Shown here: positions 1 through 51,037 of the stretch, piece after piece
Position numbering within the stretch: the first letter of the stretch is position 1
Layout of the letters: each line of letters opens with the position of its first letter
NCBI GenBank assembly: GCA_000004695.1
Contig: CM000155.2
Location: forward strand, 352,001-416,000
Reading direction: 5' to 3'
DNA length: 64,000 nucleotides
Origin: Dictyostelium discoideum
Lineage: Eukaryota
Translations under genes and position numbers: made by a program
Notes under the pieces: generated by a model
What the model was told of the DNA's origin: nothing
Database searches by the model: none
What the model saw: the letters and a program-made list of their open reading frames with translations, nothing else

Positions 1-44
1 AATATTGAAAATCATACAACAAAACTGATAATATTAAAATAAAT

Positions 45-63
45 TAGTGGGATGTGTGTGTTG
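45..63 (+). promoter_or_regulatory. Conserved GT/G-rich promoter block ttagtgggatgtgtgtgttg upstream of Tgr-like copy 1. Copies recur at 4101..4121 and 7619..7637. It is a candidate G-box (GBF-type) element.
   Basis: The block is conserved about 330 bp upstream of each exon-1 ATG, while the surrounding sequence is nearly pure A/T. It is G/GT-rich like Dictyostelium G-box/CAE elements. Confidence 0.35.
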
Positions 64-151
64 AAAAACATTATTTAATAAATTATGTGATTGTTTATTT
101 TTAATTTAATATTGAAGCATTACCTTATTGTTTTTATTATTATTTTATTAT

Positions 152-196
<45 letters not shown>

Positions 197-395
197 TATC
201 AATATTTTTTTTTTTTTTAATTATTATTAATATTTATGTTTTTTTTTTAATTATTAATATTTTTGTTTTTATATATTATTTTAATTTTTATTTTTTTTTA
301 TTTTTTTTATTTCAAATCATTAACAGTAATAATAAATTATTTAACATCCTCAAAAAAACAATTTCATAATTAAAATAATAAATAGTAAATCAAAA

Positions 396-559
396 ATGAA
401 ATTTATTATATTATTTTTTATTTTATATTTAGTTTCTGATACATTAGGATCTTTAAATGAACCAGTTGTCAAGAGTAAATATTTTAAATATAAATATAAT
501 TTAATTTTTTTTTTTTATTGTTTTTATTGTTTGGGTTATTTTTATTTCTCAAATTTAAT

Positions 560-621
<62 letters not shown>

Positions 622-3592
622 TTTGAATTATATTTGTTATTTACTATTTTTAATTTTTTAATATTAAAGTCTCCAAATATTCAGCTATTGTTTATTTTTT
701 ATATCATTGTTAATGTCATTAATAACTATAACTAGTTATTAATATAAATAAAAATCAATCATTTTGTAGATATATTATCTATTTATGTATTTTATAAGAT
801 ATTGATAATTTCCAACACTAATTTTTAATTTTTTGTTTGGTTCATTATTATTTTTTTAAAAATTGTTCAATGTTTTAACCACTTTTCAATGTAATTAAAG
901 ATATTTGCAATTGTTTATTAAAAAAAAAAAAAAAAATTGTTTGTTATTTTATTAAAAAAAAAAGAGCTACTGTTCATTTTTTAATAAATTAATTTTAAAT
1001 CAATATCTATAACAATTGATATTAATAAATAATAATCATTTAATAGATACATTATCTATATTTTTTGTAATTTTTTTAAAAAGAAATCAATAGTTTCCAA
1101 CACTAATTTTTTCTTATGATTTTATTTTAATTTCAGATTTTACATGCACAAAACAATCATTGGAATATACATATGATATTGATAGTACATATTATACAAA
1201 ATGGATTTTTTCAGATTTGGAATATGAATTGGTTTTTGAATGTAAAAATAATAGCAAAGAAAGAACATGTACTGCTGGTATGTCCATTGATATTGCTAAA
1301 AATTTACATGGTCAAATAAAGATGTGCGGAACTGATAATAATAGTGTATTAGATTGCCATTCGAATTACGAAGAATATTATCCAAAGCCAATTATTGAAG
1401 GTGACTTTAAACCATCTACCAAAGGTGGTCCTACTATTATGAAAGGTTATTATTTGGCAGTTGGTGCATACTACTATAACATTATCCCTTATACTAGATT
1501 GGGTATTATAGGTGATGTTCATAGTAACTCTATAGATGTCACAAATTTAATACTAGACTATAAAGGTGGTTGTGGCCCAAGAACTATTCAATGGCCAAAT
1601 GATTTTAAATATAGTTTCAATCATTCAAATCCAATCATTGAAAATATTTTTATTGAAGGTTCATCTTTTATATCAAAAGGTTCTAATTTTTGTAATTCTT
1701 CTGATTCAATTCAAATTTATTTAGATGGTGTTCAAATTGATAAATCAAAAATAAAATCAATTGATCATGAGCAGTTTGAAATAATTTACACTCAACTATA
1801 TTCAAAATCAATCAATGTTAAAATAGTATCTGGTGGACTTGAATCGAATATTTACAAATTGGATTTTAAACCTATACCTTTAAAAATTAATAGTGTTCCA
1901 AGATTAAAAGGTGGTTCAATTACAATAATTGGTGAAAGACTATCTTCACAAGTAAATAATTCAACAATCATTGTTAAAATTGGTCAATATGATTGTAAAA
2001 ATGTAATCTCATCAAAAAATGAAATTCTCTGTAATTTAGAATCGGTTCCAAATGTTGAAAAAGTTAAATTGGTAGATTTACAAGTTAATATCTCAATAAA
2101 TGGTATTTTTAATGAAAATAATTTATTATTCTCATTCGATATACCAATAATATCAGATTTTATACTTCCACAAGGTGAAGTTAAATTAGTTGGTGATTGT
2201 TTTGGTTCTTCACAATTGACTCAAGTTAAAATTGACGATGTATTACAATCCAATATAACAATTAATATTAATGAAAAAGAAACAACACTTTCATTTAAGC
2301 CAATTAAACCAATTAAAAAATCAAAGTTATATATAATTGTCAATGGTACAAAATCAAATACTATTGAAATTGATTCATCATTTTTTGTAAAAAGTGTTCC
2401 ATCTTCACCTTCAGTAAATGGTCAAATTGTAAACTTTACTCTTTTCAATATAAATCCAAATAATGTTAATGCAACACCAATTATGATTTTTCAAGATAAT
2501 AGTTCAATAAAAGCAATTGATTATAAAAATTCAAATGAATACTCAACTCACACATACTCTTTTGATATTCCAAAAAGTTGTGGGAGAAATGAAATTACAA
2601 TTTTAATTGGAGACCAACTAACCCGTACTGAAATTTATTATGAATTACCAATAATATCAAGTTGTTCAATTGTTTCAAATCAAATGATTAAATGTCTTGG
2701 TAATTTTTTAAATTATTTAGATTTATTTAAAAATGGTAAAATTAAAATACAATTTTCAAATATGGTAATAATTGATAATATTCCAAACAATCCAATTATT
2801 TTTATGAGTGATTCATTTTCATTCCCAATGAAGCCAGAGTATAGTTCAAGTGATATATATCTTATTGTTTGTGATGAAACTTCTCTAGATTTTAAAGTTG
2901 ATATAACTCCATCGCTTAAATTTGTGAGCCAATCTCTTGTTTTCAACTCCACTGGTGGTGAATTATTAATTAATGGTGAAAACTTAAATGAAAATACAAT
3001 TTACAATACATCTGTATATTGCTTTTCAAATAAACAAGTTTATAATTGTTCATTTATAAACAATACATCTATATCATGTGATATTGAATTGTTAGGTCCA
3101 TTCGATCAACTTTGTAAAATCAAATTTAATAGTAAAGATGAGAATAATAACATTTCAATATCATATTATCCTCCATTAGTTTTAAATTCAACAACGATTT
3201 CAAAATCATCAACTGGTGGAATTATTACTATTTTTGGTAATGAATTTTATAATCAAATTGATTCAATTACAGTTGGTAAAAGTAAATGTTTAAACTCTAC
3301 ATTTATAAATTCAACATCGATTTCATGTTTTGTAGAACCTTCAAATTTTAATATTAACCAAACTGAACAACAAAAAAAACAATATGTTAACATTATAATT
3401 AATGGTAAAAGTGGTGGTAATAATTTAATAATTTATTCTGGTAATTCAAATAGAATTGATGAAAATAACAAATCAAATAAAAATACAATTGACGAAAAAC
3501 AAACCAATAATGAAATCAAAAATGAATCTATTAAAAGAAATATAAATTTTATATTATTTATAATTATATTCTCAACAATTTTAATCATATAA
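396..3592 (+). CDS. IPT/TIG-domain cell-surface glycoprotein, Tgr(tiger)-family-like, copy 1. Model is join(396..474,1137..3592), about 844 aa. It has a signal peptide, several IPT/TIG repeats, many N-x-S/T sites and a hydrophobic extreme C-terminus, so it looks GPI-anchored or secreted.
   Basis: Exon 1 encodes [26 protein letters not shown], a signal peptide. The donor is AAGA|GTAAAT at 474/475 and the acceptor is tttcag| at 1136, with phase 1 preserved. IPT motifs follow the P..G..GGxITI.GxxF...V.xG...C pattern ([15 protein letters not shown]...[35 protein letters not shown]). The protein ends [17 protein letters not shown]. Confidence 0.85.
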
Positions 3593-4010
3593 TTTAATTT
3601 ATTAATTTCATTGTAAAAAAAAAAAAAAATAAAACTCCAACCAAAAACAATTATTGGGTATATATAAAAAATGATTATTTTTGGTGGGTTAAAAATAAAA
3701 TATAATACAATAATAAATTTTGAACTTATTTTTTTTTTTTTATTTTTTGATAATTTTTTTTTTTTTAATTATTTTTAAAATAATTATTTTTTTGTTTTTA
3801 CTATTTGATAAGTGTGATTGTGAATATTAATAATTTAAATAAAATATAAAATTAAAAATGATTAAAAATATAACCACTTATCATAAAATACTTTTTTTGG
3901 CAGTGGTTGAAAAAAAAAAAAAAAATAATAATATTCATTTCAATTAAAAAAAACACATCCAAAAAAGTTTAATAAAAAATAAATAGTATTCTAAAATGAT
4001 GAAAGAAACA

Positions 4011-4043
4011 CCAATTGGTGGGTGTGGTAAACTTGACACAGTG
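4011..4043 (+). promoter_or_regulatory. Second conserved G-rich block ccaattggtgggtgtggtaaacttgacacagtg (copy at 7523..7553) about 390 bp upstream of the copy-2 and copy-3 starts
   Basis: GGTGGGTGTGG core. It is retained in both inter-copy spacers despite the AT-rich, indel-rich surroundings. Confidence 0.35.
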
Positions 4044-4398
4044 TTTAATAAACATGATGAGTAATATTGAAAATCATACAACAAAACTGATAAAAATAAA
4101 TTAGTGTGGGAGTGTGTGTTGAAAAACATTTTTCAATAAATTATTTGATTGTTTTTTTTTAATTTACTATTGAAGCATCGTTACCTTAATTTTATTATTA
4201 TTATTATTATTATTTTTTTTTTTCTTTAATATTTTTTTTAATTATTATTATAATTTTTATTTTTTTTAATTATTAATATTTTTGTTTTTATATTTTTTTA
4301 ATTATTAATATTTTTTATTTTTTTATTTCAAATCATAAATTATTTAACATCCTCAAAAAAACAATTTTAATATTAAAATAATAATAGTAAATCAACAA

Positions 4399-4451
4399 TG
4401 AAAATTATTATATTTTTTTTTATTTTATATTTATTTTCCGATACATAAGGA
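4399..4451 (+). pseudogene. Disrupted signal-peptide exon of Tgr-like copy 2. It has an in-frame TAA (TTA to TAA) and a 9-nt deletion relative to copies 1 and 3.
   Basis: Copy 2 reads atgaaaattattatattttttttt...tccgatacaTAAggatctttagttgtcaagagtaaatat. Copies 1 and 3 read ...gatacaTTAggatctttaaatgaaccagttgtcaagagtaaatat. Confidence 0.6.
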
Positions 4452-4649
4452 TCTTTAGTTGTCAAGAGTAAATATATAAATTAAAATAATTTTAATTTTT
4501 TTTAGTTTTCATTATATCTATATGTACAAAATATATATGTGTCTTAGATAATCATTGAATAGATACATTATTTATATTTTGTATTTTTTTAAAAAGAAAT
4601 CAATGGTTTCCAACTCTAATTTTTTCTAATATTTACATTTTAATTTCAG

Positions 4650-7105
4650 ATTTTACATGCACAAAACAATCATTGGAATATACATATGATATCGATAGTA
4701 CATATTATACAAAATGGATTTTTTCAGATTTGGAATATGAATTGGTTTTTGAATGTAAAAATAATAGCAAAGAAAGAACATGTACTGCTGGTATGTCCAT
4801 TGATATTGCTAAAATTTTACATGGTCAAATAAAGAAGTGCGGAACTGATAATAATAGTGTATTAGATTGCCATTTGAAATACGAAGAATATTATCCAAAG
4901 CCAATTATTGAAGGTGACTTTAAACCATCTACCAAAGGTGGTCCTACTATTATGAAAGGTTATTATTTGGCAGTTGGTGCATACTACTATAACATTATCC
5001 CTTATACTAGATTGGGTATTATAGGTGATGTTCATTGTAACTCTATAGATGTCACAAATTTAATACTAGACTATAAAGGTGGTTGTGGCCCAAGAACTAT
5101 TCAATGGCCAAATGATTTTAAATATAGTTTCAATCATTCAAATCCAATCATTGAAAATATTTTTATTGAAGGTTCATCTTTTATATCAAAAGGTTCTAAT
5201 TTTTGTAATTCTTCTGATTCAATTCAAATTTATTTAGATGGTGTTCAAATTGATAAATCAAAAATAAAATCAATTGATCATGAGCAGTTTGAAATAATTT
5301 ACACTCAACTATATTCAAAATCAATCAATGTTAAAATAGTATCTGGTGGACTTGAATCGAATATTTACAAATTGGATTTTAAACCTATACCTTTAAAAAT
5401 TAATAGTGTTCCAAGATTAAAAGGTGGTTCAATTACAATAATTGGTGAAAGACTATCTTCACAAGTAAATAATTCAACAATCATTGTTAAAATTGGTCAA
5501 TATCATTGTAAAAAGGTAATCTCATCAAAAAATGAAATTCTATGTAATTTAGAATCGGTTCCAAATGTTGAAAAAGTTAAATTGGTAGATTTACAAGTTA
5601 ATATCTCAATAAATGGTATTTTTAATGAAAATAATTTATTATTCTCATTCGATATACCAATAATATCAGATTTTATACTTCCACAAGGTGAAGTTAAATT
5701 AGTTGGTGATTGTTTTGGTTCTTCACAATTAACTCAAGTTAAAATTGACGATGTGTTACAATCTAATATAACAATTAATATTAATGAAAAAGAAACAACA
5801 CTTTCATTTAAGCCAATTAAACCAATTAAAAAATCAAAGTTATATATAATTGTCAATGGTACAAAATCAAATACTATTGAAATTGATTCATCATTTTTTG
5901 TAAAAAGTGTTCCATCTTCACCTTCAGTAAATGGTCAAATTGTAAACTTTACTCTTTTCAATATAAATCCAAATAATGTTAATGAAACACCAATTATGAT
6001 TTTTCAAGATAATAGTTCAATAAATGCAATTGATTATAAAAATTCAAATGAAAACTCGACTCACACATACTCTTTTGATATTCCAAAAAGTTGTGGGAGA
6101 AATGAAATTACAATTTTAATTGGAGACCAACTAACCCGTACTGAAATTTATTATGAATTACCAATAATATCAAGTTGTTCAATTGTTTCAAATCAAATGA
6201 TTAAATGTCTTGGTAATTTTTTAAATTATCTAGATTTATTTAAAAATGGTAAAATTAAAATACAATTTTCAAATATGGTAATAATTGATAATATTCCAAA
6301 CAATCCAAATATTTTTATGAGTGATTCATTTTCATTCCCAATGAAGCCAGAGTATAGTTCAAGTGATATATATCTTATTGTTTGTGATGAAACTTCTCCA
6401 GATTTTAAAGTTGATATAACTCCATCGCTTAAATTTGTGAGCCAATCTCTTGTTTTCAACTCCACTGGTGGTGAATTATTAATTAATGGTGAAAATTTTA
6501 ATGAAAATACAATTTACAATACATCTGTATATTGCTTTTCAAATAAACAAGTTTATAATTGTTCATTTATAAACAATACATCTATCTCATGTGATATTGA
6601 ATTGGTAGGTCCATTCGATCAACTTTGTAAAATCAAATTTAATGGTAAAGATGAGAATTATAACATTTCAATATCATATTATCCTCCATTAGTTTTAAAT
6701 TCAACAACGATTTCGAATTCATCGATTGGTGGAATTATTATAATTTTTGGTAATGAATTTTATAATCAAATTGATTCAATTACAGTTGGTAAAAGTAAAT
6801 GTTTAAACTCTACATTTATAAATTCAACATCGATTTCATGTTTTGTAGAACCTTCAAATTTTATTATTAATCAAACTGAACAACAACAACAACAATATGT
6901 TAACATTACAATTAATAACAAAAGTGGTGGTAATAATTTAATAATTTATTCTGGTAATTCAAATAGAATTGATGAAAATAATAAATCAAATAAAAATACA
7001 ATTGATGATAAACAAACCAACAATGAAATCAAAAATGAATCCATAAAAAGAAATATAAATTTAATTTTATTTATAATTATATTCTCAACGATTTTAATCA
7101 TTTAA
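4650..7105 (+). CDS. Tgr-like IPT/TIG glycoprotein copy 2, main exon. Acceptor is tttcag| at 4649. It is 97-98% identical to copy 1 and has the same hydrophobic C-terminus. Because the upstream signal-peptide exon is broken, this is a possible pseudogene or a product lacking a signal peptide.
   Basis: The ORF 4673..7105 begins at an in-frame TTG. The reading frame stays open back to the acceptor at 4650. Alignment to copy 1 is nearly gap-free. Confidence 0.7.
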
Positions 7106-7943
7106 TTAAATTTATTACTTTCGTTATAAAAAAAATTATACTCCCACCAAAAACAATGATTGAATATATATAAAAAATGATTATTTTTAGTGGTTTTGTG
7201 TTAAATAAAAAAAAAAAAAATACAATAATAAATTTTGAACATGTTGTTTTTTTTTTTTTATATTTTTTTTTTTTTCTAATTATTTTTATAATAATTATTT
7301 TTTTGTTTTTGCTATTTGATAAGTGTGTTATTGTGAATTTTGATAATTAAAATAATATATAAAATCAAAAATAATTAAAAATATAACCACTTCTCATAAA
7401 CTACTTTTTATGGTAGTGGGTGAAAAAAAAAAAAATAATAATTTTCATTTCAATTAAAAAAAACAAGCCTAAAAAATTTTAATACAATTAATAGTTTTCT
7501 AATATGATGAAAGAAACATCAAGTGGTGGGTGTGGTAAACTTGGCACACAGTGTTAAAAAAAAACAATATGAGTAATTTTGAAAATCATACAACAAAACT
7601 GATAATATTAAAATAAATTAGTGGGATGTGTGTGTTGAAAAACATTATTTAATAAATTATGTGATTTGTTTATTTTAATTTAATATTGAAGCATTACCTT
7701 ATTGTTTTTATTATTATTTTTTTTTTTTTTTTTTTTTTTTTTTATTATTATCAATATTTTTTTTTTTTAATTATTATTAATATTTATGTTTTTTTAATTA
7801 TTAATATTTTTGTTTTTATATATTATTTTAATTATTATTTTTTTATTATTTTTTTTATTTCAAATCATTTACAGTAATAATAAATTATTTAACATCCTCA
7901 AAAAAACAATTTCATTATTAAAATAATAAATAGTAAACCAAAA

Positions 7944-8105
7944 ATGAAATATATTATATTATTTTTTATTTTATATTTAGTTTCTGATACATTAGGATCT
8001 TTAAATGAACCAGTTGTCAAGAGTAAATATTTTAAATATAAAAATAATTTTATTTTTTTTTTTTTATTGTTTTTACTGTTTGGGTTATTTTTATATCTCA
8101 AATTT

Positions 8106-8151
<46 letters not shown>

Positions 8152-11100
8152 TTTGATTATTGTTGTTATTTACTATTTTTAATTTTTTAATATTAAAGTC
8201 TCCAAATATTCAGCTATTGTTTATTTTTTTATATCATTGTTAATGTCATTAATAACTATAACTAGTTATTAATATAAATAAATATCAATCATTTTGTAGA
8301 TATATTATCTATTTATGTATTTTATAAAAGATATTGATAATTTCCAACACCAATTTTTAATTTTTTTATTTGGTTCATTAATATTTTTTTAAAAAATTTT
8401 CAATGTTTTAACCACTTGTCAATGTAATTAAAGATATTTGCAATTGTTTATTAAAAAAAAAAAAAAAAAAAAAATTGTTTGTTATTTTTTTAAAAAAAAA
8501 AAAAAAGAGCTACTGTTCATTTTTTAATAAATTAATTTTAAATTAATATCTATAACTATTAATATTAATAAATATTAATCATTTATTAGATACATTATCT
8601 CTATTTTTTGTATTTTTTTAAAAAGAAATCAATGGTTTCCAACACTAATTTTTTCTTATGATTTTATTTTAATTTTAGATTTTACATGCACAAAACAATC
8701 ATTGGAATATACATATGATATTGATAGTACATATTATTCAAAATGGATTTTTTCAAATTTGAAATATGAATTGGTTTTTGAATGTAAAAATAATAGCAAA
8801 GAAAGAACATGTACTGCTGGTATGTCCATTGATATTGCTAAAAATTTACATGGTCAAATAAAGATGTGCAGAACTGATAATAATGGTGTATTAGATTGCC
8901 ATTCGAATTACGAAGAATATTTTCCAAAGCCAATTATTGAAGGTGACTTTAAACCATCTACCAAAGGTGGTCCTACTATTATGAAAGGTTATTATTTGGC
9001 AGTTGGAGTAATTCCTTACTTTACTATTATCCCTGATACTATATTGGGAACAATAGGTGATATTTTTAGTAACTCTATAGATGTCACAAATTTAATACTA
9101 GACTATAAAGGTGGTTGTGGCCCAAGAACTATTCAATGGCCAAATGATTTTAAATATAGTTTCAATCATTCAAATCCAATCATTGAAAATATTTTGATAG
9201 AAGGTTCATCTTTTATATCAAAAGGTTCTAATTTTTGTAATTCTTCTGATTCAATTCAAATTTATTTAGATGGTGTTCAAATTGATAAATCAAAAATAAA
9301 ATCAATTGATCATGAACAATTTGAAATAATTTACACTCAACTATATTCAAAATCAATAAATGTTAAAATAGTATCTGGTGGACTTGAATCGAATATTTAC
9401 AAATTGGATCTTAAACCTATACCTTTAAAAATTAATAGTGTTCCAAGATTAAAAGGTGGTTCAATTACAATAATTGGTGAAAGACTATCTTCACAAGTAA
9501 ATAATTCAACAATCATTGTTAAAATTGGTCAATATGATTGTAAAAATGTAATCTCATCAAAAAATGAAATTCTCTGTAATTTAGAATCGGTTCCAAATGT
9601 TGAAAAGGTTAAATTGGTAGATTTACAAGTTAATATCTCAATAAATGGTATTTTTAATGAAAATAATTTATTATTCTCATTCGATATACCAATAATATCA
9701 GATTTTATACTTCCTCAAGGTGAAGTTAAATTAGTTGGTGATTGTTTTGGTTCTTCACAATTGACTCAAGTTAAAATTGACGATGTGTTACAATCCAATA
9801 TAACAATTAATATTAATGAAAAAGAAACAACACTTTCATTTAAGCCAATTAAACCAATTAAAAAATCAAAGTTATATGTAATTGTCAATGGTACAAAATC
9901 AAATACTATTGAAATTGATTCATCATTTTTTGTAAAAAGTGTTCCATCTTCACCTTCAGTAAATGGTCAAATTGTAAACTTTACACTTTTCAATATAAAT
10001 CCAAATAATGTTAATGCAACACCAATTATGATTTTTCAAGATAATAGTTCAATAAAAGCAATTGATTATAAAAATTCAAATGAATACTCAACTCACACAT
10101 ACTCTTTTGATATTCCAAAAAGTTGTGGGAGAAATGAAATTACAATTTTAATTGGAGACCAACTAACCCGTACTGAAATTTATTATGAATTACCAATAAT
10201 ATCAAGTTGTTCAATTGTTTCAAATCAAATGATTAAATGTCTTGGTAATTTTATAAATTATCTAGATTTATTTAAAAATGGTAAAATTAAAATACAATTT
10301 TCAAATATGGTAATAATTGATAATGTTCCAAACAATCCAATTATTTTTATGAGTGATTCATTTTCATTCCCAATGAAGCCAGAGTATAGTTCAAGTGATA
10401 TATATCTTATTGTTTGTAATGAAATTTCTCCAGATTTTAAAGTTGATATAACTCCATCGCTTAAATTTGTGAGCCAATCTCTTGTTTTCAACTCCACTGG
10501 TGGTGAATTATTAATTAATGGTGAAAATTTTAATGAAAATACAATTTACAATACATCTGTATATTGCTTTTCAAATAAACAAGTTTATAATTGTTCATTT
10601 ATAAACTATACATCTATCTCATGTGATATTGAATTGGTAGGTCCATTCGATCAACTTTGTAAAATCAAATTTAATGGAAAAGATGAGGAGTATAACATTT
10701 CAATATCATATTATCCTCCATTAGTTTTAAATTCAACAACGATTTCGAATTCATCAATTGGTGGAATTATTACAATTTTTGGTAATGAATTTTATAATCA
10801 AATTGATTCAATTACAGTTGGTAAAAGTAAATGTTTAAACTCTACATTTATTAACTCAACATCAGTTTCATGTTTTTTAGAACCTTCCAAAATTATTATT
10901 GATCAAAGCAAACAACAACAGCAACAACAACAACAACAACAACAATATGTTAACATCACGATTAATGGTAAAAGTGGTGGTAATAATTTAATTATTTATT
11001 TTGATAATTCAATTATTGAAGTTAAAAACCAATCAAGCCAAAGTGATAAAAACAACAACAACAACAACAACAACAATGGTAAAAATATAAATAATGGTGA

Positions 11101-11863
11101 TAGTAAAACTGATGGTAGAAGTTTTTATGAAAAAAATAAAAAATGGATAACAGTATTAATAATAATTGGAAGTTTGGCATTACTTTTATTTATCTTTTTT
11201 GGTATAATTTATTGTAATAGAAAAAACGGTACTGTTATCTATTGGAAATATATTATGTGTCGCGGAATCAAAGAAAAAAAATATAAATTTAAAAATAGAA
11301 AAGAGATAAAACAAATACAAGAATTAAGACATACATTGGATAATGCAGAGACAATTTTTGCTGACTTTGAATTAGATAATATAATAACTTATTCAGAGTA
11401 TCAACTTACACCCGAAAATCGTCTACGAAAAGAACAACAAGAATTAGCTCGAGAAAATTATATTGAAACTTACCCAGATTATTATTTACATATAAATAAA
11501 ACTAAAAATTTACCAAATAATGATTCATTACCTCCAAATCAAGTTGAAAATTTACCAAATAATAATTCATTACCTCCAAATAAAATTGAAAATTCATTAC
11601 CTCCGAATCAAACTGAAAATTTACCAAATAATAATTCATTACCTCCAAATCAAACTGAAACATTACAAGAAGATTCTTTACCTCCAAATCAAACTGAAAC
11701 ATTACCAGAAGTTTCATTACCTCCAAATCATATTGAAACATTACCAGAAGTTTCATTACCTCCAAATCAAATTGAAACATTACCAGAAGTTTCATTACCT
11801 CCAAATCATATTGAAAAACTAACAGACAATTCATCATCATCTCAAGACCCAAGCTCTTCATAA
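7944..11863 (+). CDS. Tgr-like IPT/TIG type-I transmembrane glycoprotein, copy 3, full length. Model is join(7944..8022,8679..11863), about 1087 aa. After the ectodomain it has polyQ and polyN linkers, a TM helix ([23 protein letters not shown]) and a roughly 230-aa cytoplasmic tail with eight SLPPNQTE-type repeats.
   Basis: Exon 1 is identical in structure to copy 1, with donor GTAAAT at 8023 and acceptor ttttag| at 8678. The ORF 8702..11863 continues through the TM segment. A basic stop-transfer run (CNRKNG) follows the TM. Confidence 0.85.
11500..11830 (+). repeat. Coding tandem repeat of 39-42 nt, about 8 units, encoding (N/T)LP(NNN/EV)SLPPN(Q/H)(T/I)E in the cytoplasmic tail of copy 3
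   Basis: aatttaccaaataataattcattacctccaaatcaaactgaa recurs with small substitutions. Both alternative frames also stay open (ORFs 11502..11861 minus and 11520..11822 plus), which is typical of a repeat. Confidence 0.9.
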
Positions 11864-24633: not shown

Positions 24634-25962
<1,329 letters not shown>

Positions 25963-26402: not shown

Positions 26403-28189
26403 ATGAACTTTTTCAAGAGTAACAGTAACAGTAACAGTGATACTAGTAGTAGCAGTAGTAATAATACATCAAATGATATAAAACCAGAAAAAAAAGATTA
26501 TAAACATATAGATGATCCATTTCGTATTCATAGATTAACTTGCGAAAATAATATTGAAGAAATTAAGAAATATTTAGATAGTGAACCATATTATAAAGAG
26601 TTTATTGATATTAGAGATACCCATGGTTATTCAGCTTCTCATTATGCAGCACATGTATGTATTTTTTCTTTTTTTTTTTTTCCATTAATATTTTAGTGCA
26701 CTATTAACTTTATCAAACATATATATATATATAGTTTGGACATAAAAATATTATCGAATTATTATTAAAATATGGGGCAGATCCAACTAAAAAGAGCGCT
26801 GCAGGTTGGTCAGTAATTCAGGAAGCATGTGGAAGAAAAGATAGAGAAATTGTAACATTACTATTACAACAAATAAAGAATAAAATTGAAAATGAATTCA
26901 CAAAAAGAATGCCAATATTAGTTTCAGCACTTGAAAATGTAAATAATATACCCCCTCCCCATATAATTTTATAAACTAAATATATATATATATATATATA
27001 ATAACTAATAATTTTTATTTTTTTATTTATTTTTTAGATACCAGATTTTGAAATGGAATTAAAATGGGAAGTTAAAAGTTGGGTACCATTAGTAACTAGA
27101 TTTTGTCCATATGATACTTATAAAATTTATAAACAAGGATCATCATTTAGAGTTGATACATCAATTATTGGAATGGATGGTATTAAATTCATTAGAGGGG
27201 ATTTATCATTTTTATATAAATCTCAAAGACTATTTTCAATGGATAATATAAAACATACATATTCAGAGATGGAAATTGTAGCTTCAAAAAATCCAAAAGT
27301 ACATGATGAAGAAGTAGATATACTTTTAGATCAAACTATGAATAGAGTAAAATTAATGACTGATGAAATCGTTTTCACAAAATCAAAAACTTGGTTTGGT
27401 AATGAAAAAACAGAGAAAATCGGTGACAATGCTGATTGGAATGCTAAAATGTTTGATGTTACAAATGTAGATTTAAAAATTATGGCAAGAAAACCAAAAA
27501 GACAACCAAATCATCCACATTTTAATAAAGATCAACAACAATTAGAAGGTAAAGATAGTAGTAGTAGTGGTAGTGATGATGATGATAATAATAATAATAA
27601 TAATAATAATAAAATTACAACAAATATAGATGATAATAATAATAATAATGATGAAGATGAACTTAATCAAAATCCAATTGAACAAACAAAGAAATATATT
27701 GAATCATTAAAAAATGTAACTTATGAAATTAGAGATAGTACATTGAAATCAAAAATAATGGAACCAGGTTATTTTAAAGCACCAAAGAATTTTGATCCTT
27801 ATACACATGAACAAAATATTAACAAGTCAAAGATTAAAACTCAAGGTTTATTATGTGATGGTGAAACCGTTAGTGAAAGACATAAATATTTCAAGGGTAC
27901 AATTTGGATATCTGAGGAATTCCCTAGAAAAGTCACTGATCTATTACCAATTTTTGAAGTTTTATCACCAACCAATAAATTGTTTAGTAGATTATGTGAA
28001 TTTATCTCTTTGAAATTACCATCAGATGGTTTTCCTGTTAAATTGGATTTACCATTATTTCCAACTATTTCTGCAACTGTTATCTTTACAAAATATATTG
28101 AAAAGCCTGTTGATAAAAATTTATTTACAATTCCATCTCATTATATTGTAAAAACAACCCCACCATCTTCAACAACATTTACAAAATAA
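26403..28189 (+). CDS. ANKRD13-family protein with ankyrin repeats and a GPCR-chaperone-type domain. Model is join(26403..26654,26735..26938,27038..28189), about 535 aa.
   Basis: Donors are CAT|GTATGT at 26655 and AAT|GTAAAT at 26939. Acceptors are atatatag| at 26734 and tttttag| at 27037, all phase 0. WEVKSWVPLVTRFCPYDTYKIYKQGSSFRVDTSIIGMDGIKFIRGDLSFLYK matches ANKRD13A [52 protein letters not shown]. An ANK repeat (GYSASHYAAHFGHKNIIELLLKYGADP) spans the first intron. Confidence 0.8.
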
Positions 28190-28553: not shown

Positions 28554-29585
28554 ATGATTAAAGAAGAAAATAAATTTCTTTTTTATATTTGGAGAAATTT
28601 ATATTTAAAAAATAAAATTTTACAACAAGTTAAATATTTAAATAATAATATTTTTATAGTTGAAATAAAAAGTAAAGAAGAGTTATTAAATCATAAATTT
28701 AGAGATTTAATAAAAGTTATAATTTATAATTCAAATGAAGATATTTGTAAAGGTGATTTACCATCAAATATTGTTAAATTATCATTTGGTAGAGGTTTTA
28801 ATAAACCAATACCAAGTGGAGCAATTCCTTTAACCGTAAAGTCAATAACATTTGGAATGTTTTTTAATCAAAAATTAACTTTAGGAATAGTTCCATCAAG
28901 TTGTAAATTATTAAAATTTGGTGAATTTTATAATCAAAATTTAATACCAAATCAATCAATTCCACCAAGTGTTGAAAATTTAGAATTTGGGTTTATGTAT
29001 AATGAAAAACTAATTAAAGGTTCAATTCCATCAAGTGTTACTTATTTAACATTTGGGAATCAATTTAACCAAATACTAACAGATGGAATCATTCCATCGA
29101 GTGTGAAAACACTGATATTCGGTGACAGTTTCAATTTACCATTATTTAAAAATGCAATTCCATCAAGTGTGCAAACCTTGAAATTCGGTTTAAAATTCAA
29201 ACAATATTTAAACAAAAATTCAATTCCACCAAGTGTGAAATCATTAACCTTTGGAAACGGGTTTAATAAACCATTAACCAATGAATCAATTCCATCAAGT
29301 GTTGAATCATTAACATTTGGTAATTGTTTCAATAGAGAATTACTACCAGGTGTAATTCCACCAAGTGTCAAATCATTAACATTTGGAAATGATTTTAATA
29401 AACCATTAACCAAACAATCAATTCCATCAAGTGTTATCTCATTAACATTTGGTAATAAATTTAATCAACCATTACCTGACGGAGTGCTACCTCCAAATCT
29501 TTTAACTTTAAAATTTGGTAACTCCTTTAACCAACCGAAATCAAATATATCAATTCCTCAAACTGTTAAATCATTAAATTTTTAA
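28554..29585 (+). CDS. FNIP-repeat-containing protein, the Dictyostelium-type FNxxIP ~22-aa repeat, with about 12 repeats
   Basis: Repeated units LxFGxxFNxPLxxxxIPSSVxxL (LSFGRGFNKPIPSGAIPLTVKS, LTFGNQFNQILTDGIIPSSVKT and others). It is a single exon. Confidence 0.85.
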   Translation: MIKEENKFLFYIWRNLYLKNKILQQVKYLNNNIFIVEIKSKEELLNHKFRDLIKVIIYNSNEDICKGDLPSNIVKLSFGRGFNKPIPSGAIPLTVKSITFGMFFNQKLTLGIVPSSCKLLKFGEFYNQNLIPNQSIPPSVENLEFGFMYNEKLIKGSIPSSVTYLTFGNQFNQILTDGIIPSSVKTLIFGDSFNLPLFKNAIPSSVQTLKFGLKFKQYLNKNSIPPSVKSLTFGNGFNKPLTNESIPSSVESLTFGNCFNRELLPGVIPPSVKSLTFGNDFNKPLTKQSIPSSVISLTFGNKFNQPLPDGVLPPNLLTLKFGNSFNQPKSNISIPQTVKSLNF

Positions 29586-31675: not shown

Positions 31676-33001
31676 TTATAATTTTGAACCTTGCATTAAT
31701 GCACCTAATTTAGTAGCTAAACCCATATTACCAGAAATCTTTAATTTACCTTTGGTGAAAGCAGATTGAGCATTTAATTTACCAGTCATAATATCAACAA
31801 AATCTTCATCTGAAACTGTGATTGTTACGTTTGGTTTAGTTGAACCAGCACCAACAACAATTGAACCAGAACCATTCTTTAAATCTAAAGCCCAAGCTTG
31901 GGTATTTGTACCTTTTTTAATGTTAATTAAATAGATACCATTGATTTTCTTTACTAATTCTGCACCTTTAGCACCAATGTTACCTTGAATGGTGGTGAAA
32001 ATCTTTGAAGCATTGTAACCATCGACAACGACAGAACCTGATGGAGTGGCAGCAAGAGCTTTTGGAACAGCAACCTTTGGTGGTCTAACCAAAACGGATT
32101 CACCATCAGCTGGTTTACTATTGACAGCGGCCAAGATACCACTAACACTTTCAGAGGCTGATGTTGGGTAGGATGGATTATCGAATGATTCGATTTGGGC
32201 CCAATTATCTTTGATTTTCTCTGGGGTCAAGTCTTTCATATAGACACCAGCAGAACGTTGTAAACGAACTTTGCTGACCCAACCAGCACCAACTTCGAAA
32301 ACACCACCAGTTTCAGTGGTGTCTTGATGGCAGAGATACAAGACCAATGGTACGATGTAGTCTGGTTTCATTTGCTCCAAAATTTCTGGTGGCATGACTG
32401 ATTCGGTTAAACGAGAGGCAGCAATTGGTGCAATTGTGTTACAGTGGATATTCTTGCTCTTACCTTCTTGAGCGAGTGTGTTGGAGAGACCAACCAATGC
32501 CATCTTCATTGAACCATAGTTTGCTTGACCAAAGTTACCATAGAGACCTGCGGCACTGCTTGTCATGATGATACGACCAAAGTTTTTCTCTCTCATATGA
32601 TTCCATGCTGCTCTTGATAATTTGTATGCACCTTTGGCGTGGACACGATAAACGAGATCCCAATCACCATCGGTCATTTTACCAAAACTGACGTCACGTA
32701 AAATACCTGCATTGTTGATTAAAATATCGACACCACCAAATGAATCCATAGCGGTTTGAACAATCTTTTCACCATCTTCAACAGAGTCATAATTGGCAAC
32801 TGCTGTACCACCTGCTGCTTTAATTTCTTCAACAACTTTATCTGCTGCTTTTGATGATGAACCTTGACCTGTATGTGAACCACCTAAATCATTAACAACA
32901 ACTTTAGCACCACGTTTAGCAAATTCTAATGCATAAACTTTACCAATACCACCACCAGCACCTGTAACAATTACAACTTTATCTTTAAAATTTAATGCCA
33001 T
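31676..33001 (-). CDS. mfeA: Peroxisomal multifunctional enzyme type 2-like, with an SDR 3-hydroxyacyl-CoA dehydrogenase domain and a C-terminal SCP2 sterol-carrier domain, ending in the PTS1 -SKL
   Basis: The N-terminus has the Rossmann motif VVIVTGAGGGIGK, the active-site Y..K (NYGSMK) and an SCP2-like C-terminal domain. The last three residues are SKL. The 441-aa single exon matches the known Dictyostelium MFE-A architecture, which has the dehydrogenase and SCP2 domains but no hydratase domain. Confidence 0.85.
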   Translation of the reverse strand: MALNFKDKVVIVTGAGGGIGKVYALEFAKRGAKVVVNDLGGSHTGQGSSSKAADKVVEEIKAAGGTAVANYDSVEDGEKIVQTAMDSFGGVDILINNAGILRDVSFGKMTDGDWDLVYRVHAKGAYKLSRAAWNHMREKNFGRIIMTSSAAGLYGNFGQANYGSMKMALVGLSNTLAQEGKSKNIHCNTIAPIAASRLTESVMPPEILEQMKPDYIVPLVLYLCHQDTTETGGVFEVGAGWVSKVRLQRSAGVYMKDLTPEKIKDNWAQIESFDNPSYPTSASESVSGILAAVNSKPADGESVLVRPPKVAVPKALAATPSGSVVVDGYNASKIFTTIQGNIGAKGAELVKKINGIYLINIKKGTNTQAWALDLKNGSGSIVVGAGSTKPNVTITVSDEDFVDIMTGKLNAQSAFTKGKLKISGNMGLATKLGALMQGSKL

Positions 33002-35672: not shown

Positions 35673-38600
35673 ATGGGAAAAAATAAAATGAATAAAAAAA
35701 ATAATAATTTTAAGTATTTATTTTTAATAATAATAAATTTATTTTTAAAAACTGCAAGTGCAGCAACAAAAAATGGTTTAGATGTGAACCAATATAACTG
35801 TATGGTGGATCTTTTTACATCAAATCAAATTTTGAACCAGGTTAATTTGGCAAACCTTAATTATAATTTTTGTGATTTTGTTAAAGGATTTCAATGTAAT
35901 ACTGCTACTTATTTTATTGAAAAAGTGTATGTTATTTTTTTTTTTTGATCAATTTACTACCCACAACAAAATTCTTAAATTTACTCAATTTTTTATTTTT
36001 TTAAAAAAAAAAAAAATCAAAAAAAAAGAACATTAAATTATCCTATAGGACAAGTTCCCATACCATTAATTACAACTAGTTTTGCATGTATACCAACAAT
36101 GACTCAATTAGTAATAAATAATTTCGATGTTGGATCTTTCATATCAACAAATAATGTTAAATTACAAAGATTGTAAATATTTTTTATCATAATACAACAA
36201 CAACAAAAATAATAATAATAATGAATTATAATTAATGTTTTTTTTTTTTTTTTTTTTTTTTAATATTATATAAATGAAATAGGGAATTAAATAATTGTAC
36301 AAAATTATATCCATTGCCAGTTTTAAGTTCAATTATTGAAGATGTTTACATTTTTAATAATGATAATTCGCACAATGAGAGTAGAGTGTCAATTGATTTT
36401 TCAAGTATTATAAATTTAAGATCATTTACCTTGGTTGATTATACAAGAAATGTGTCATATACAAGATTAATAGGTATACCAACAACTTTTAAATTATCTT
36501 CTTTAACAACACCTGTTGCAGAAATACCAATTTTAACAAATATGAACTTGACACTGTAAATATATTTATCATTAATATAAATTAAATTTAATTTTTATTC
36601 ATTTATCATTATTAAGCTAATAATTATAATAATTTTTAATATATTATATTATAGTTCAATTTTCTTTAATAATTATGTAAATAGAAATTCATTTATAAAT
36701 TTTAATACATTCAATTTAATAAGTTCTCTTACTTTATCATCTTATTCTCCAAATACATTAATACCATTTCCATTTGATTTACAAAATATACCAACTGGTG
36801 CTCCACTTACACTATTGTAAGTTTTTTATATTTATTTATCTATCTATTTATTTATTTATTTATTTTTTTAATTAAAGAATTTAATTTTAAAATAATTAAT
36901 TAATTAATTATAAAAAAAAGTATTTCTCATGTTTGTTTTGAACCAATAGTTTCAAATACTTCTGATGATTATTTTGCAGATTTTTCAAATCTTAAAAAAT
37001 TAATTTTATTTGGTGCTTTGTGTAACAGTAAACAACCATTACAAAAATCATATTTTCCAATTAAAAAACTTCAAGATGGGCCAACCCAATATTTTTATTT
37101 TGAAGGTTACAATTTTCATCCATTTTCATTTGACATATTTTCAACTGTTGCCGTATTATATTTAACACATAATAATTTAACAGGTGTAATTCCAATTAAA
37201 AAAGCAATTGAACAAGATGTGTATGTGTATTTTAATTTTTCATCATATGTAATATAATTTTTCATAATAAATTAACCAAAAACTATATATGATTTTTTTA
37301 AATATCAATAGAGATTTATCAAATAATCAATATATAGGTCGTTTAGATGATTCATATTGTACTTCATATGTCAATGTAAGTAATAATGTAGGAATAAATG
37401 ATATCCCAACTTGTTTTTCTTGTCATTGGAGTAGTTTTATGCAACCATATTTCCGGAATATAAGTTTTGTAAATTCAAATCAATGTAATAGTATTATTCC
37501 AAATTTAAAGGTTGAAACTGATGGACTTATTATATTGTATGGTAAAGATCTTGGTTTTTCAAACATTGATTTTGAAACTACACCATCATTAATTTGGAAA
37601 AGAATTCCATCCTCAAAAGGTACATCATTTTCTGCAAATTATTCATCAATTGCTAATTTTGGGTCATTGTCAACAATGGATATTCTATACTATTATCCAA
37701 ATAAGATTTATACAGTTTCATTATCTCCAATGTTTCCAGAAATTTATAAAGTGAAAGTAGTTTCACAAGATACATTCGACATTTATGGTAAATTCTTTAC
37801 ATATAATATTACAGATGTGTCAATTGAAATTGGTGATTTAATTCAACCATTAATTTGTTATGTATCATATACAAGTTTTGATTATATTAGTTGTTCATTG
37901 GAAAATATATTATCATTATTAATTGAATCACAACCACCAGTATTTGAAACAAATGTTATACCAATAGATGATAATTCAGGTATTACAATAAAATTATCAT
38001 CAATTAAAGTTTCTATTGGTTCATTAAGTTCAAAAGTTTATTTTACAAATACTGTTGGAGTGGAGAGTAATAATAGTTGTATTGCTTCTTGTCCAGTTGG
38101 ACAATATTGTAGTTTAAATTCTGCTACTTGTGTAGTACCTGACCCACTCCCAACCTCACCACCACCAGGTAATTGTAAAAATAATTGTTCAGGTAATGGT
38201 GTTTGTTTAGCTGCTTCAAGTCTATGTGTATGTAATGCAGGGTTCTCAGGTGAAGATTGTTCAGGTAAATTTTGTTCAAGTAGTTGTAGTGCAGATTTAT
38301 CACCTTCTCAAGGTTTATGTAACAATGTAAATGGTGAATGTGAATGTTTTAAATATTACACTGGTTCAAAATGTGAATTGCCAAATCACTTTGTTTCATC
38401 AAATGTACCATGTTCTATCAATGGTGGTACTGTATTATTATATGGTTGGTTTGGTACTAATAATACAAACGTTTTAGTTCATATTGGTGATGCAAAGTGT
38501 ATGAATGTTATTGTAAATTCATCTCAAATACAATGTACTATTGAAAAGGGTTCCATTGGTATAAAGTCAATTAATGTAACTCAAAATTCAATAGTTTGGT

Positions 38601-39662
38601 ATGCCAATAATGCTTATGAATATATAAATCCAGTTAAACAATGTTCAATTCCAAATTGTAATAATCATGGTACATGTAATCAAAATACAGGTAAATGTGA
38701 ATGTAGTAAACCATATAGTGGCTATGATTGTTTAGCTTTTGACCAAGCAAATTCAGGAGGTACTACCACATCACCATCAACACAACCACCTATTGCAATA
38801 CCAGAATCAAAACCAGTTATTAATACTACAACAGGTTCAGCAGAAATTACAAATGAACAAACCAATTATAAAATATTATTAAAATCAATTGTTGAATTAG
38901 ATTTTTCAAATAATGTAGTTTTTGAATATATATTGGATGGAAAATGGTCACTTTCAGCTTCAAAAAATGGTGATTCAGTTGTAACAAATTTCACACAAAC
39001 CATTAATAATACAACTAAAATAACTTCGAGTATTGAAGATTTATCATCAGATAAGAATTTTACATTTGCAGGTATTGATTTCACTGTTAAAAGTGGATCT
39101 GTTAAAGTATCTGTTGAAATTTTAAATTGGTCATTCTTAAATTCATTAAATACACTTCAATTAAGAATGGAATCATTAGTTTCAAATGATGGTGATGATA
39201 AAAATAATATAAATAAATGTAATTTAGAAAATGATGAAACTAATGTATCAAGTGATCAAAATCCACTTCAATTTAATAGTAATTTAAATAATGTTAAAAT
39301 TGAAAGGAATGCTAAAATTCTATACGGTAGATTCTTAAATAGAGCATTATCAGATGGTAGACCAACATTCATAACAAATCAAATCGTATCAAATTCATCA
39401 AATTCGTTAATAGTAGGCATTAACCTACCACATTGTAACAGCGAATGTGTAATTGATCCAGACTTTTCAGTATTAGTTTCATCAGATTTTAAATCTGCAG
39501 ATTCTTGTTCTCCTCATTCCGAAGACTCCAATAGAAAGTGGGTATTACCAGTTTCAATTGTTGTCAGTGTTGTAGGTGCTTCTCTTATTGTCATTATTAG
39601 TGTTATGATTTATCGTAAGAATAGAACAAAAATTAAAATTGGAATTTCAAAATTAAAAATAA

Positions 39663-39673
<11 letters not shown>
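35673..39673 (+). CDS. Type-I membrane protein with a signal peptide, leucine-rich repeats, tandem EGF-like cysteine repeats and a C-terminal TM. Six-exon model with exons at about 35673..35920, 36050..36172, 36283..36556, 36655..36816, 36921..37219 and 37311..39673.
   Basis: Exon 1 encodes the signal peptide (MGKNK...LFLIIINLFLKTASA). Introns are bounded by GT(A/G)(A/T)GT...(a/t)ag. LRR-like motifs include LTHNNLTGVIPIK and DLSNNQYIGRLD. EGF-like repeats include CKNNCSGNGVCLAASSLCVCNAGFSGEDC and CNNHGTCNQNTGKCECSKPYSGYDC. The TM is VSIVVSVVGASLIVIISVMIY followed by RKNRTK. The ORF-track start at 37289 lies inside intron 5. Individual exon edges may be off by ±10 nt. Confidence 0.6.
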
Positions 39674-39712: not shown

Positions 39713-41608
39713 TTAATAATTTTTAAAATGATCAGAAGTATGTTGAACAAACTTTTTAAATTTTGAATTTTGATTATTTATATTATTATTAATATTATTT
39801 TTATCAAAAATTTCAATTAATTCACCAGAATCAATTACAAGTATACGATCAGAATCAATGATTGTATCAATACGATGAGCAATTGTTAAGGTTGTAGAAT
39901 TTGTAATATTTTCTTTAACTGATATATTTAATTGATGAGCTGTAAAATAATCTATACTACTTGAATGTTCATCAAAGAATACTAATTTTGGTGATTTTAA
40001 TAGAACTCTAGTTAAACATAGAAGTTGTTTTTGACCAAAACTTAAATTTGCTTGTTCATGAATGATTGTATCAATTTTCATTGGTAATAAAGAGATTGTT
40101 TCTTTTAATTTAACTTTTTCTAATGCTAACCAAATTTCAGAGTCTGAATAGATTCCAAATGGGTCAATATTCTTTCTAATGGTACCAGAGAATATAAAAG
40201 GTTCTTGAGGACATATACCAATAGAGTTTCGTAATTTTGATAAACTAATTTTAGAAATATCAATACCATCGATATGAATTGAACCTTTTGAGCATTCAAT
40301 CATTCTAAATAGTGCTAGCATTGTTGTACTTTTACCACTACCAGATTTACCAACAATTCCAATTTTTTCATTTGATTTTATGTCGAATGAAATGTTTTTT
40401 AATGATGGTTTTAAATTTGGACGATATTTAATTTCAACATTTTTAAATTGGATTTCACCTTTTTGAGGCCAATTAATTGGTAGATTAGACTCTAATTCCA
40501 TATCAACATTCATTGTATCACCTTCTCTTGGTTGGTTAATATAATTTTCAATACGTTCAACTGATGACATTTTCATTGAGAATTCAATATATTGACGAAT
40601 GCACCAATTTAAATAACCAGTCAAAGAGAGTGATGTTGTTACAGCCAATACAGATAAACCAGTGTTTGAATTAAATAAAGAAAAGAATGCTGATAAAAAT
40701 ACGGCAGCCGAAGAAATGATTTCAATCTTTATACCAATCCAACGATGAGCTGAAAAGTTGTAATAAAATAAACGTAAATTCACATTTATACTATCTTGCA
40801 TTCTTTTAATAAATCTTGATTGTTGTCGAAATGATCTAATTGTAATTAAACCATTAAAACTTTCAGATAATATTGAAAATATTGGAGATCTTGAAATGTT
40901 TTCTAATCTTTTCAATTCCAATGATGATGATCTATACAATTTTTGAACCAAATAATAAAATAATGCTAATAATAAAAATGGAAATACAATCAATGGATTA
41001 ATTACTATCATCATTAAAACCGCAACCAAAACTGTTGAACCACAATAAAGTGCATCTGAAAGTACCATTAAAATTAAATCAACTTCAGCAATATCTTTAG
41101 TGAACCTATTATTAATTCTACCAGAACTATTAATATCAAAAAATTGACAACTTGCATATCCAATTGATTTCAAAAGCTTATCATGTAAATTCTTTGAACT
41201 TGAATTTGTAAAATGTAATATCATAAAATACCTAATTCCTAAAAATACACTAAATAAACCAACCAATAGCAAATAATATAAAATGTAAAAAGAATCACCT
41301 TTAGTTCCATTCTTATTCTTCTTTTCATCACTCCAAATCGTTAACCAATAATCAAATAATAAAAACAAAAGTTGACTAATTATATACATCATTATCATTG
41401 TAAAAAAGAAAATAAATGATGAACCATATTTAATATACATTTTATAAATATTTAATTCAACAGAACCAGTTTCTCTTTCTTCATTTACTAATAATTTTGA
41501 ATTTAATTCATCATTTTTTGATTCAAATTCATTTGAAATAACATCATTAACATTTATAACTTGTTGTTGTTGTTCTTTTTCTAAATTTTCAACATCTTCC
41601 TCTTCTTC

Positions 41609-41643
<35 letters not shown>

Positions 41644-48747: not shown

Positions 48748-48778
<31 letters not shown>

Positions 48779-50983: not shown

Positions 50984-51015
<32 letters not shown>

Positions 51016-51037
51016 AAAACAAAGACAAAGAAGATAA
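45697..51037 (+). CDS. Vps8-like CORVET/endosomal tethering subunit, with an N-terminal WD40/beta-propeller, an alpha-solenoid and a C-terminal RING-H2. Model is join(45697..45928,46014..51037), about 1751 aa.
   Basis: Donor is GATAAAA|GTTTGT at 45929 and acceptor is (t)n tag| at 46013, phase 1. The propeller segment is GYPTCFTVSKFICIGTSHGYLMIFNF...WLVSGHQSGHIILWDIVGGKPIKVI...KFFADGARFVSSDSNG. The C-terminal RING-H2 is CGMCYRPL...YQCNHTFHSECLGKHKVCPLC. The size and domain order fit Vps8. Vps41, Vps11 and Vps18 are less likely but not excluded. Confidence 0.65.

Follow-up and report, generated by a model that had tools for sequence, protein, structure and literature searches.

The tgr ('Tiger') family of Dictyostelium discoideum comprises 38 genes and 26 pseudogenes in strain AX4, and which of its copies are intact varies from strain to strain (PMC12745789; bioRxiv 10.1101/2025.10.22.684067). 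Clusters of genes and pseudogenes, gene conversion as well as non-allelic recombination have already been published for this family, and tgrA is described in the literature as its sole cluster of unpaired genes lying on the same strand. Here, one tgrA copy is analysed in a stretch of 64,000 nucleotides (nt) of D. discoideum DNA (GenBank assembly GCA_000004695.1, contig CM000155.2, positions 352,001 to 416,000 of the forward strand), referred to as the window and numbered from its first letter. The window has a G+C content of about 20% and opens with three tandem, same-strand copies of one gene, named copies 1, 2 and 3 (Table 1). With good confidence, copy 2, which lies in the same-strand tgrA cluster of chromosome 6, can be regarded as an unprocessed (duplicated) pseudogene. 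An original prediction, made from the letters of the window, had described it as a copy being lost; the sequence was read correctly there, but the case is an ordinary one of a birth-and-death phenomenon that is already known. The points added here are that a single TAA codon appears to be the whole of the defect, that the protein models available for the locus look like artefacts, that copy 2 is a mosaic of three parts, and that a second assembly contains a chimera between copy 2 and the paralogue tgrA1.

A nonsense codon in the signal peptide of a tgrA copy

The translation of copy 1 is 100% identical to the AX4 protein XP_635224 (P0001) and that of copy 3 is identical to XP_635226 (P0004), the genes of both being placed on a 3.6-megabase chromosome. 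Copy 1 is probably tgrA2, as judged from gene order, and copy 3 is probably tgrA3 (DDB_G0291668), for which a supplementary expression table gives an exonic length of 3267 nt, compared with 3264 nt in copy 3. The same table gives 2541 nt for tgrA1 (DDB_G0291622), the length found for an 846-amino acid (aa) paralogue located upstream of the window (P0003), which was equated with tgrA1 on this basis. All tgrA gene names used here come from that one table, which refers to strain QS33 and lists tgrA1, tgrA3, tgrA4 and tgrA5 without any tgrA pseudogene; the gene names and DDB_G identifiers returned nothing else of relevance from the full-text literature. Copies 1 and 3 both carry the Pfam domains Ig_TgrO1 and TIG, and the translation of copy 2 exon 2 matches the same two domains above the curated cut-offs (1.8e-31 and 1.2e-10, respectively). 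Copy 2 thus has the IPT/TIG and TgrO1-like Ig domains as well as the cluster location by which members of the Tgr family are recognized. Because of the protein identities, the Tgr domains, the published exonic lengths and the same-strand arrangement, the start of the window is placed inside the tgrA array on chromosome 6 of AX4.

The start codon of copy 2 occupies positions 4398-4400, one base before the start given in the original prediction (4399). Translation from this ATG would reach a TAA within the signal peptide and stop after 16 codons, and exon 1 read up to the stop encodes only the 16-residue peptide MKIIIFFFILYLFSDT. This codon, which had been correctly reported as a TTA changed to TAA, is the leucine codon TTA in copies 1 and 3 and in tgrA1. 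The mutated base is a T in all other paralogues and in eight of eight paralogues from wild strains (alignment column 681), and the TAA of copy 2 appears to be the derived state. It is situated two residues before the putative cleavage site of the signal peptide (...SDTLG/S...). In the neighbouring copies the signal peptide, which starts with MK(F/Y), is intact, while the TAA deprives copy 2 of an N-terminal signal sequence. Copy 2 is therefore a tgrA member as a gene relic and not as a protein. Downstream of the lesion, exon 2 keeps an uninterrupted frame of 817 codons and differs from copy 1 at 49 positions in 2456 nt (98.0% identity), in agreement with the intact remainder of 97-98% identity described before. 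The encoded ectodomain contains 21 cysteines and 29 N-x-S/T sequons, a composition that fits a protein of the secretory pathway. With the signal peptide interrupted, this cysteine- and glycosylation-site-rich ectodomain would be unable to enter that pathway and no normal product would be made.

Copy 2 differs from its neighbours in two further respects, which the original prediction counted among the defects. A 9-nt deletion after position 4457 removes AATGAACCA, and with it Asn-Glu-Pro of the mature N-terminus, leaving an exon 1 of 70 nt instead of 79 nt with the frame kept, as had been predicted. The intron is indeed shortened, not by 460 base pairs as first stated but by 480 nt relative to copy 1 and 474 nt relative to copy 3; compared with the 422-nt intron of tgrA1 it is 240 nt shorter. 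It aligns with the other introns over ~75 nt at its start and ~105 nt at its end and lacks the middle blocks that these share, and its splice signals are intact (donor AAGA/GTAAAT, acceptor TTTCAG/AT). Because blocks common to all D. discoideum relatives are absent from copy 2, the intron deletion appears to be derived. Exon 1 and the intron were also read in nine relatives from three other assemblies, whose arrays (L004-L006, of other D. discoideum strains and of cryptic species) were used only as outgroups for the states of these two elements. Exon 1 measures 79 nt in the D. discoideum relatives and 73, 76 or 79 nt in those of cryptic species, the variation falling in the same post-cleavage segment in which copy 2 lost 9 nt, and the introns of the relatives measure 72-73 nt, 366-404 nt or 731 nt. 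Since relatives vary likewise and the splice signals of copy 2 are intact, both the deletion, which is probably harmless, and the 182-nt intron seem to lie within the normal range of the family, and the TAA stands as the only predicted disabling lesion. The prediction of a disabled copy is thus upheld through the TAA, whereas the deletion and the short intron would be neutral accompaniments that took no part in the inactivation. In a redundant paralogue, one nonsense codon is nothing remarkable, because 6.8% of the single substitutions in exon 1 create a stop.

The intron, the upstream element and the 3' flank are all retained within the tandem unit of copy 2, together with a real lesion that offers no bypass, as expected of an unprocessed pseudogene. 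A processed (retrotransposed) origin was considered and is ruled out, as the intron is kept and the copy sits in a tandem array.

Other features of the introns and upstream regions of the array were observed in passing. The copy 1 intron contains an internal partial duplication of its own 3' end (785-826 and 1070-1111; 42 nt, 81% identity, 285 nt apart), and in copies 1 and 3 a duplicated 3' end and poly-T runs of 60-70 nt contribute to an intron length of ~660 nt; the tgrA1 intron is without part of the sequence found in these long introns. In another D. discoideum assembly, GCA_054859355.1, the first tgrA gene has GC and not GT at the exon 1 donor (AAGG/CTAAAT; L005 10001-10090) and is predicted with a different structure (920 aa), which may reflect a splice-site lesion or the use of a GC donor. 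Upstream, a conserved intergenic element with the G-rich core GGTGGGTGTGGTAAACTTG lies ~400 nt before each tgrA start codon; it is seen at positions 3990-4062 and 7500-7575 of the window and before every array member in the stretches L002 and L003. The element carries a short ATG-started open reading frame (ORF), and its candidate roles include a promoter element, an upstream ORF acting as such or the site where the transcript of the gene before it ends.

Copy 2 is a mosaic of three histories

The whole repeat unit was compared among tgrA1 and copies 1, 2 and 3, using trimmed sequences for the alignment of exon 2 and leaving aside gene B, a further array member directly upstream of the window. 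In the 320 aligned upstream nt, copy 2 carries 25 private substitutions, as against 2-5 in the other three copies; the corresponding counts are five against 0-3 in exon 1 and 15 against 2-5 in the alignable part of the intron. Seven private indels come in addition, including deletions of 5 nt and 13 nt upstream of the ATG. At the rate of exon 2, only 2.1 private changes would be expected upstream instead of the 25 observed (P about 1e-18). The 5' module of copy 2, formed by promoter, exon 1 and intron, has accordingly accumulated ~5 to 10 times more private changes than the neighbours have, and its private divergence is also ~5 to 10 times that of exon 2. However, 17 of the 31 private 5' states of copy 2 recur in paralogues from wild strains. 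Because about half of these states are found there, the module appears for the most part to be an old lineage left out of the homogenisation with its neighbours, and not one that has simply decayed.

The body of the gene has another ancestry. Over the first and longer part of exon 2, copy 2 agrees with copy 1 at the large majority of informative sites and with tgrA1 at only about five of them. From position 6402 onward the relation is reversed, with one substitution and one 3-nt CAA-repeat indel separating copy 2 from tgrA1 and 30 differences separating it from copy 1; by the Nei-Gojobori method, copy 2 and tgrA1 show zero differences across aligned codons 600-760. Such near-identity would mark a recent gene conversion or crossover with tgrA1. 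Copy 2 is thus a three-part mosaic: its 5' module is old and divergent, its body is copy-1-like and its 3' end is identical to tgrA1. From these patterns we deduce in which direction and when the exchanges took place, and gene conversion may have refreshed the body. In the mechanism that we propose, an old 5' module would have escaped the homogenisation of its neighbours and would now be attached to a body that underwent recent exchange with both copy 1 and tgrA1. A dead copy would then be kept looking intact by gene conversion and unequal crossing-over, and the same exchanges within the array would have copied the defective 5' end into a new chimeric gene.

Turnover of the array and a chimeric copy

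A second view of the locus is provided by GCA_054883475.1, a de novo assembly from Nanopore plus Illumina data (Holland et al. 2025). By elimination this assembly is very probably that of AX2-214, because its tgrA proteins are identical to those of AX4 while those of the other two 'D. discoideum' assemblies reach only 67-84%. The accession series of AX4 suggests an array of five genes (tgrA1, B, copy 1, copy 2 and copy 3), whereas the array of GCA_054883475.1 contains eight, with products of 846, 963, 844, 856, 963, 844, 857 and 1087 aa. The difference, in a region corresponding to window 1-7105 and sequence upstream of it, is a tandem duplication of 11.43 kilobases (kb), and no substitution separates its two units over 11.6 kb. 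The additional gene, P0032 (856 aa), matches copy 2 without a difference, TAA exon and 182-nt intron included, as far as an interval that holds the crossover point (Table 1); on the far side of this interval it is identical to tgrA1. Exactly such a duplication and such a chimera would follow from one unequal crossover between copy 2 and tgrA1. The extra units are either the result of a very recent crossover in the AX2 lineage or a repeat that was collapsed in the AX4 reference. Array-based comparative genomic hybridization of laboratory stocks has been published with a resolution not below ~15-30 kb and leaves the tgrA array unmentioned (PMC2643946).

The number of tgrA genes also differs elsewhere: the stretches fetched from other strains hold two, four (or more) and three of them at the corresponding places. 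Only NC4-derived sequence carries a recognisable copy 2, and no orthologue could be assigned in the L004-L006 arrays, which are too rearranged and whose nearest proteins are 67-84% identical. Decay within the array is further visible in gene B, a pseudogene in which the promoter and exon 1 have been deleted, so that intron sequence follows directly on the 3' flank of tgrA1, and in which exon 2 is frame-shifted near codon 196, a break that the gene predictor bridged. The rapid turnover of the array that had been proposed from copy 2 is strongly supported by the unequal gene numbers, the 11.43-kb duplication, the chimera and gene B.

These observations lead us to suggest, tentatively and as something we would not yet expect to hold, that the dead copy 2 still takes an active part in recombination over times as short as those of laboratory strains: a non-allelic crossover would have duplicated 11.4 kb and linked its defective 5' module with the 3' part of tgrA1, and its body would have been rewritten from copy 1 and tgrA1. 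If true, this crossover has made a new chimeric pseudogene as well as extra copies of gene B and copy 1. The tgrA pseudogenes would then constitute a reservoir of sequence, and copy 2 itself could be resurrected by a single conversion of ~250 nt from a neighbour.

Is copy 2 dead, and since when?

Practically no credence can be given to the idea that errors in sequencing or assembling the reference produced the TAA, alone or along with all the other differences. The general difficulty of assembling AT-rich tandem paralogues is all that speaks for it, and the 728 nt from 3993 to 4720 occur base for base at two places in GCA_054883475.1, where exon 2 of copy 2 is likewise identical. The exact double match in an independent assembly excludes the reading of the TAA as a sequencing error, a check that the original prediction had named beforehand and that the finding passes. 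Since AX2 and AX3/AX4 descend from the DdB clone of NC4 (PMC2643946), the allele is a natural one, older than the axenic strains and common to two laboratory lineages derived from that wild isolate. It is very unlikely, too, that copy 2 still works through another start and yields a non-secreted IPT/TIG protein, the cytosolic product that had been offered as an alternative. Exon 2 is open, and two gene predictors did produce models of this kind: P0002 (857 aa, from GCA_054883475.1) and P0033 (862 aa, an old AX4 model that survives only as a UniParc/MetaClust record). Both begin at the short ORF MMKETPIGGCGKLDTVFNKHDE within the conserved intergenic element and read through the real acceptor, and P0033 adds a frame-shifted mini-exon. 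However, before all other array members this element reads MMKETSSGGCGKLGTQC-stop, its ORF closing after 17 codons, and these members use the normal signal-peptide exon and not the upstream ORF. The ORF of copy 2 has no hydrophobic N-terminus, and a scan of positions 3593-4649, which covered the possibility of an upstream exon supplying a signal peptide, found no ATG-started ORF that joins a hydrophobic N-terminus with a phase-1 donor fitting the acceptor of exon 2. Within exon 1 there is no GT before the TAA, hence no donor by which the stop could be bypassed, and the first in-frame ATG after it, at 4793 (residue 72), would give a fragment, lacking a signal, of a protein whose ectodomain has cysteines and sequons that suit the secretory pathway. 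Judged by its sequence, the upstream ORF does not look like a credible exon, and the automatic protein models would be artefacts. No current NCBI or UniRef protein of AX4 matches copy 2, and the AX4 accession series skips from XP_635224 to XP_635226, a gap that is consistent with the withdrawal of a model for this copy.

The age of the inactivation is a separate matter, on which two readings are about equally likely. A gene that was functional until very recently, with the TAA as the first hit and the intact body as a sign of the short time elapsed, is a plausible reading to which we give somewhat less than an even chance. It agrees with the presence of one disabling lesion only, with an exon 2 open over 817 codons, with private exon 2 changes that show no excess of replacements (seven non-synonymous and five synonymous), and with ratios of non-synonymous to synonymous substitution rates (dN/dS) of 0.43-0.55 in pairs that include copy 2, which equal those of intact pairs (over all paralogue pairs, whether copy 2 is one of the two or not, the range is 0.4-0.6). 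No relaxed selection in copy 2 was detectable by pairwise dN/dS and lineage counts, which have low power with 12 private changes. The open frame is uninformative, however: ~5.7% of random substitutions create a stop, so that 12 neutral substitutions leave the frame open with P = 0.50. In addition, the mosaic body reflects its donors and not the history of copy 2 itself, and the 25 private upstream substitutions and seven private indels sit poorly with a gene only just lost. An intact body that has taken part in exchange with functional neighbours cannot be used to date the TAA, and the 'very recent' loss of the original prediction cannot be read from it. An older pseudogene, with a body repeatedly overwritten from functional neighbours and a divergent 5' module, shortened by the intron deletion, that is no longer homogenised, comes close to an even chance without reaching it. 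The histories that differ along the unit, the 3' 0.7 kb identical to tgrA1 and the exchange involving copy 2 that is directly visible in the chimera P0032 all favour such a course. Against it, the recurrence of private 5' states in wild-strain paralogues implies that much of the divergence is retained ancestral variation, the neighbours having been homogenised, and the age of the TAA itself is left unfixed by these data.

Several points weigh against regarding copy 2 as a pseudogene, or limit how far this can be extended. The seven to five ratio of private exon 2 changes fits the constraint of the family slightly better than neutrality (P = 0.08), a pattern that would be expected if the body was under selection until recently or was imported from functional neighbours. 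The status of copy 2 as a pseudogene in AX4 and dictyBase is taken from the missing protein record and the accession gap. GCA_054883475.1 very probably shares the NC4/DdB ancestor, so that it confirms the sequence and is silent on other natural populations. Finally, it is from the sequence that we infer the absence of a product, the loss of function and the position of the signal-peptide cleavage site. With these points taken into account, an unprocessed pseudogene disabled by the TAA is the explanation that we retain with good confidence.

Other features of the array and of the window

The products encoded in the array differ at their C-termini. Copies 1 and 2 (window 3500-3592 and 7015-7105, respectively) and tgrA1 end in a hydrophobic tail of 14 residues without a cytoplasmic domain, which resembles a glycosylphosphatidylinositol (GPI)-anchor signal and may serve as one. 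Copy 3 (11000-11863) has a transmembrane segment followed by a repeat-rich cytoplasmic tail of ~250 aa, in which 39-nt tandem repeats, present in 6.3 copies, encode SLPPNQ(T/I)E(T/N)LP units. Beyond the array, positions 12638-64000 are occupied by ordinary single-copy genes (Table 1), and a scan of the window found no tRNA genes.

Table 1. Coordinates of the tgrA array members, of the features of copy 2 and of other genes in the window.
Feature	Position	Strand	Remarks
Copy 1	396..3592	+	Exon 1 396-474, intron 475-1136 (662 nt), exon 2 1137-3592; product 844 aa; intact
Copy 2	4398..7105	+	Exon 1 4398-4467 (70 nt), intron 4468-4649 (182 nt), exon 2 4650-7105
Copy 3	7944..11863	+	Exon 1 7944-8022, intron 8023-8678 (656 nt), exon 2 8679-11863; product 1087 aa; intact
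Short upstream ORF	3996..4061	+	Within the conserved intergenic element; first exon of two automatic models
TAA nonsense codon of copy 2	4446-4448	+	Codon 17; TTA or TTT in relatives
In-frame deletion of copy 2	4457..4458	+	9 nt missing; frame kept
Copy-1-like tract of copy 2	4650..6401	+	19 differences from copy 1, 64 from tgrA1
tgrA1-identical tract of copy 2	6402..7105	+	Continues to ~200 nt past the stop codon
Interval of the crossover in the copy-2/tgrA1 chimera P0032	5765..5952	+	
Gene B	L002 5633-9148, L003 5631-9149		Directly upstream of the window; predicted 963 aa; pseudogene
SAE2/CtIP homologue	24634-25962	minus	
ANKRD13-like gene	27053-28189		
FNIP-repeat protein	28554-29585		
SDR plus SCP2	31676-33001	minus	
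ComC-like EGF/TIG protein	37289-39673		
ABC half-transporters	39713-43813	minus	Two adjacent genes
Vps8	46163-51037		

Implications and comparison with described systems

The finding matters mainly for annotation and for research on the evolution of tgr genes. Because birth-and-death evolution with many pseudogenes has already been published, the understanding of the family is unchanged. For this locus and its chimeric twin, two or three wrongly modelled proteins (P0002, P0032 and P0033) are present in public databases, with a non-conserved upstream ORF grafted onto an open exon 2; these inflate the counts of intact Tgr proteins and would mislead surveys of domains and phylogeny. Users of AX2 and AX4 should also be aware that the reference array and that of GCA_054883475.1 differ, with five versus eight genes. 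More generally, the locus illustrates cleanly that, where an array undergoes conversion, the age of a pseudogene cannot be told from its intact frame, given that three histories are combined here in the 5' module, the body and the 3' end.

Among described systems, copy 2 is closest to the annotated tgr pseudogenes of AX4 (e.g., tgrC_ps1), with which it shares the family, the position of a duplicated copy beside intact paralogues and a disablement by stop codons. It differs from tgrC_ps1, which is truncated and contains several internal stops, in having a single stop in the signal peptide and a full-length open body. Like gene B, copy 2 is a dead member of the tgrA array in which the function of the signal-peptide exon has been lost; gene B, however, is much more decayed, its promoter and exon 1 having been deleted outright and its exon 2 frame-shifted. 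On a broader scale, the comparison is with recognition families that evolve by birth and death, such as the major histocompatibility complex (MHC), a term that two 2025 papers have applied to the tgr family. The parallel with MHC-type families is to be drawn with care, as the expression of TgrA is low and a part in recognition is presumed for it from the analogy with TgrB1 and TgrC1.

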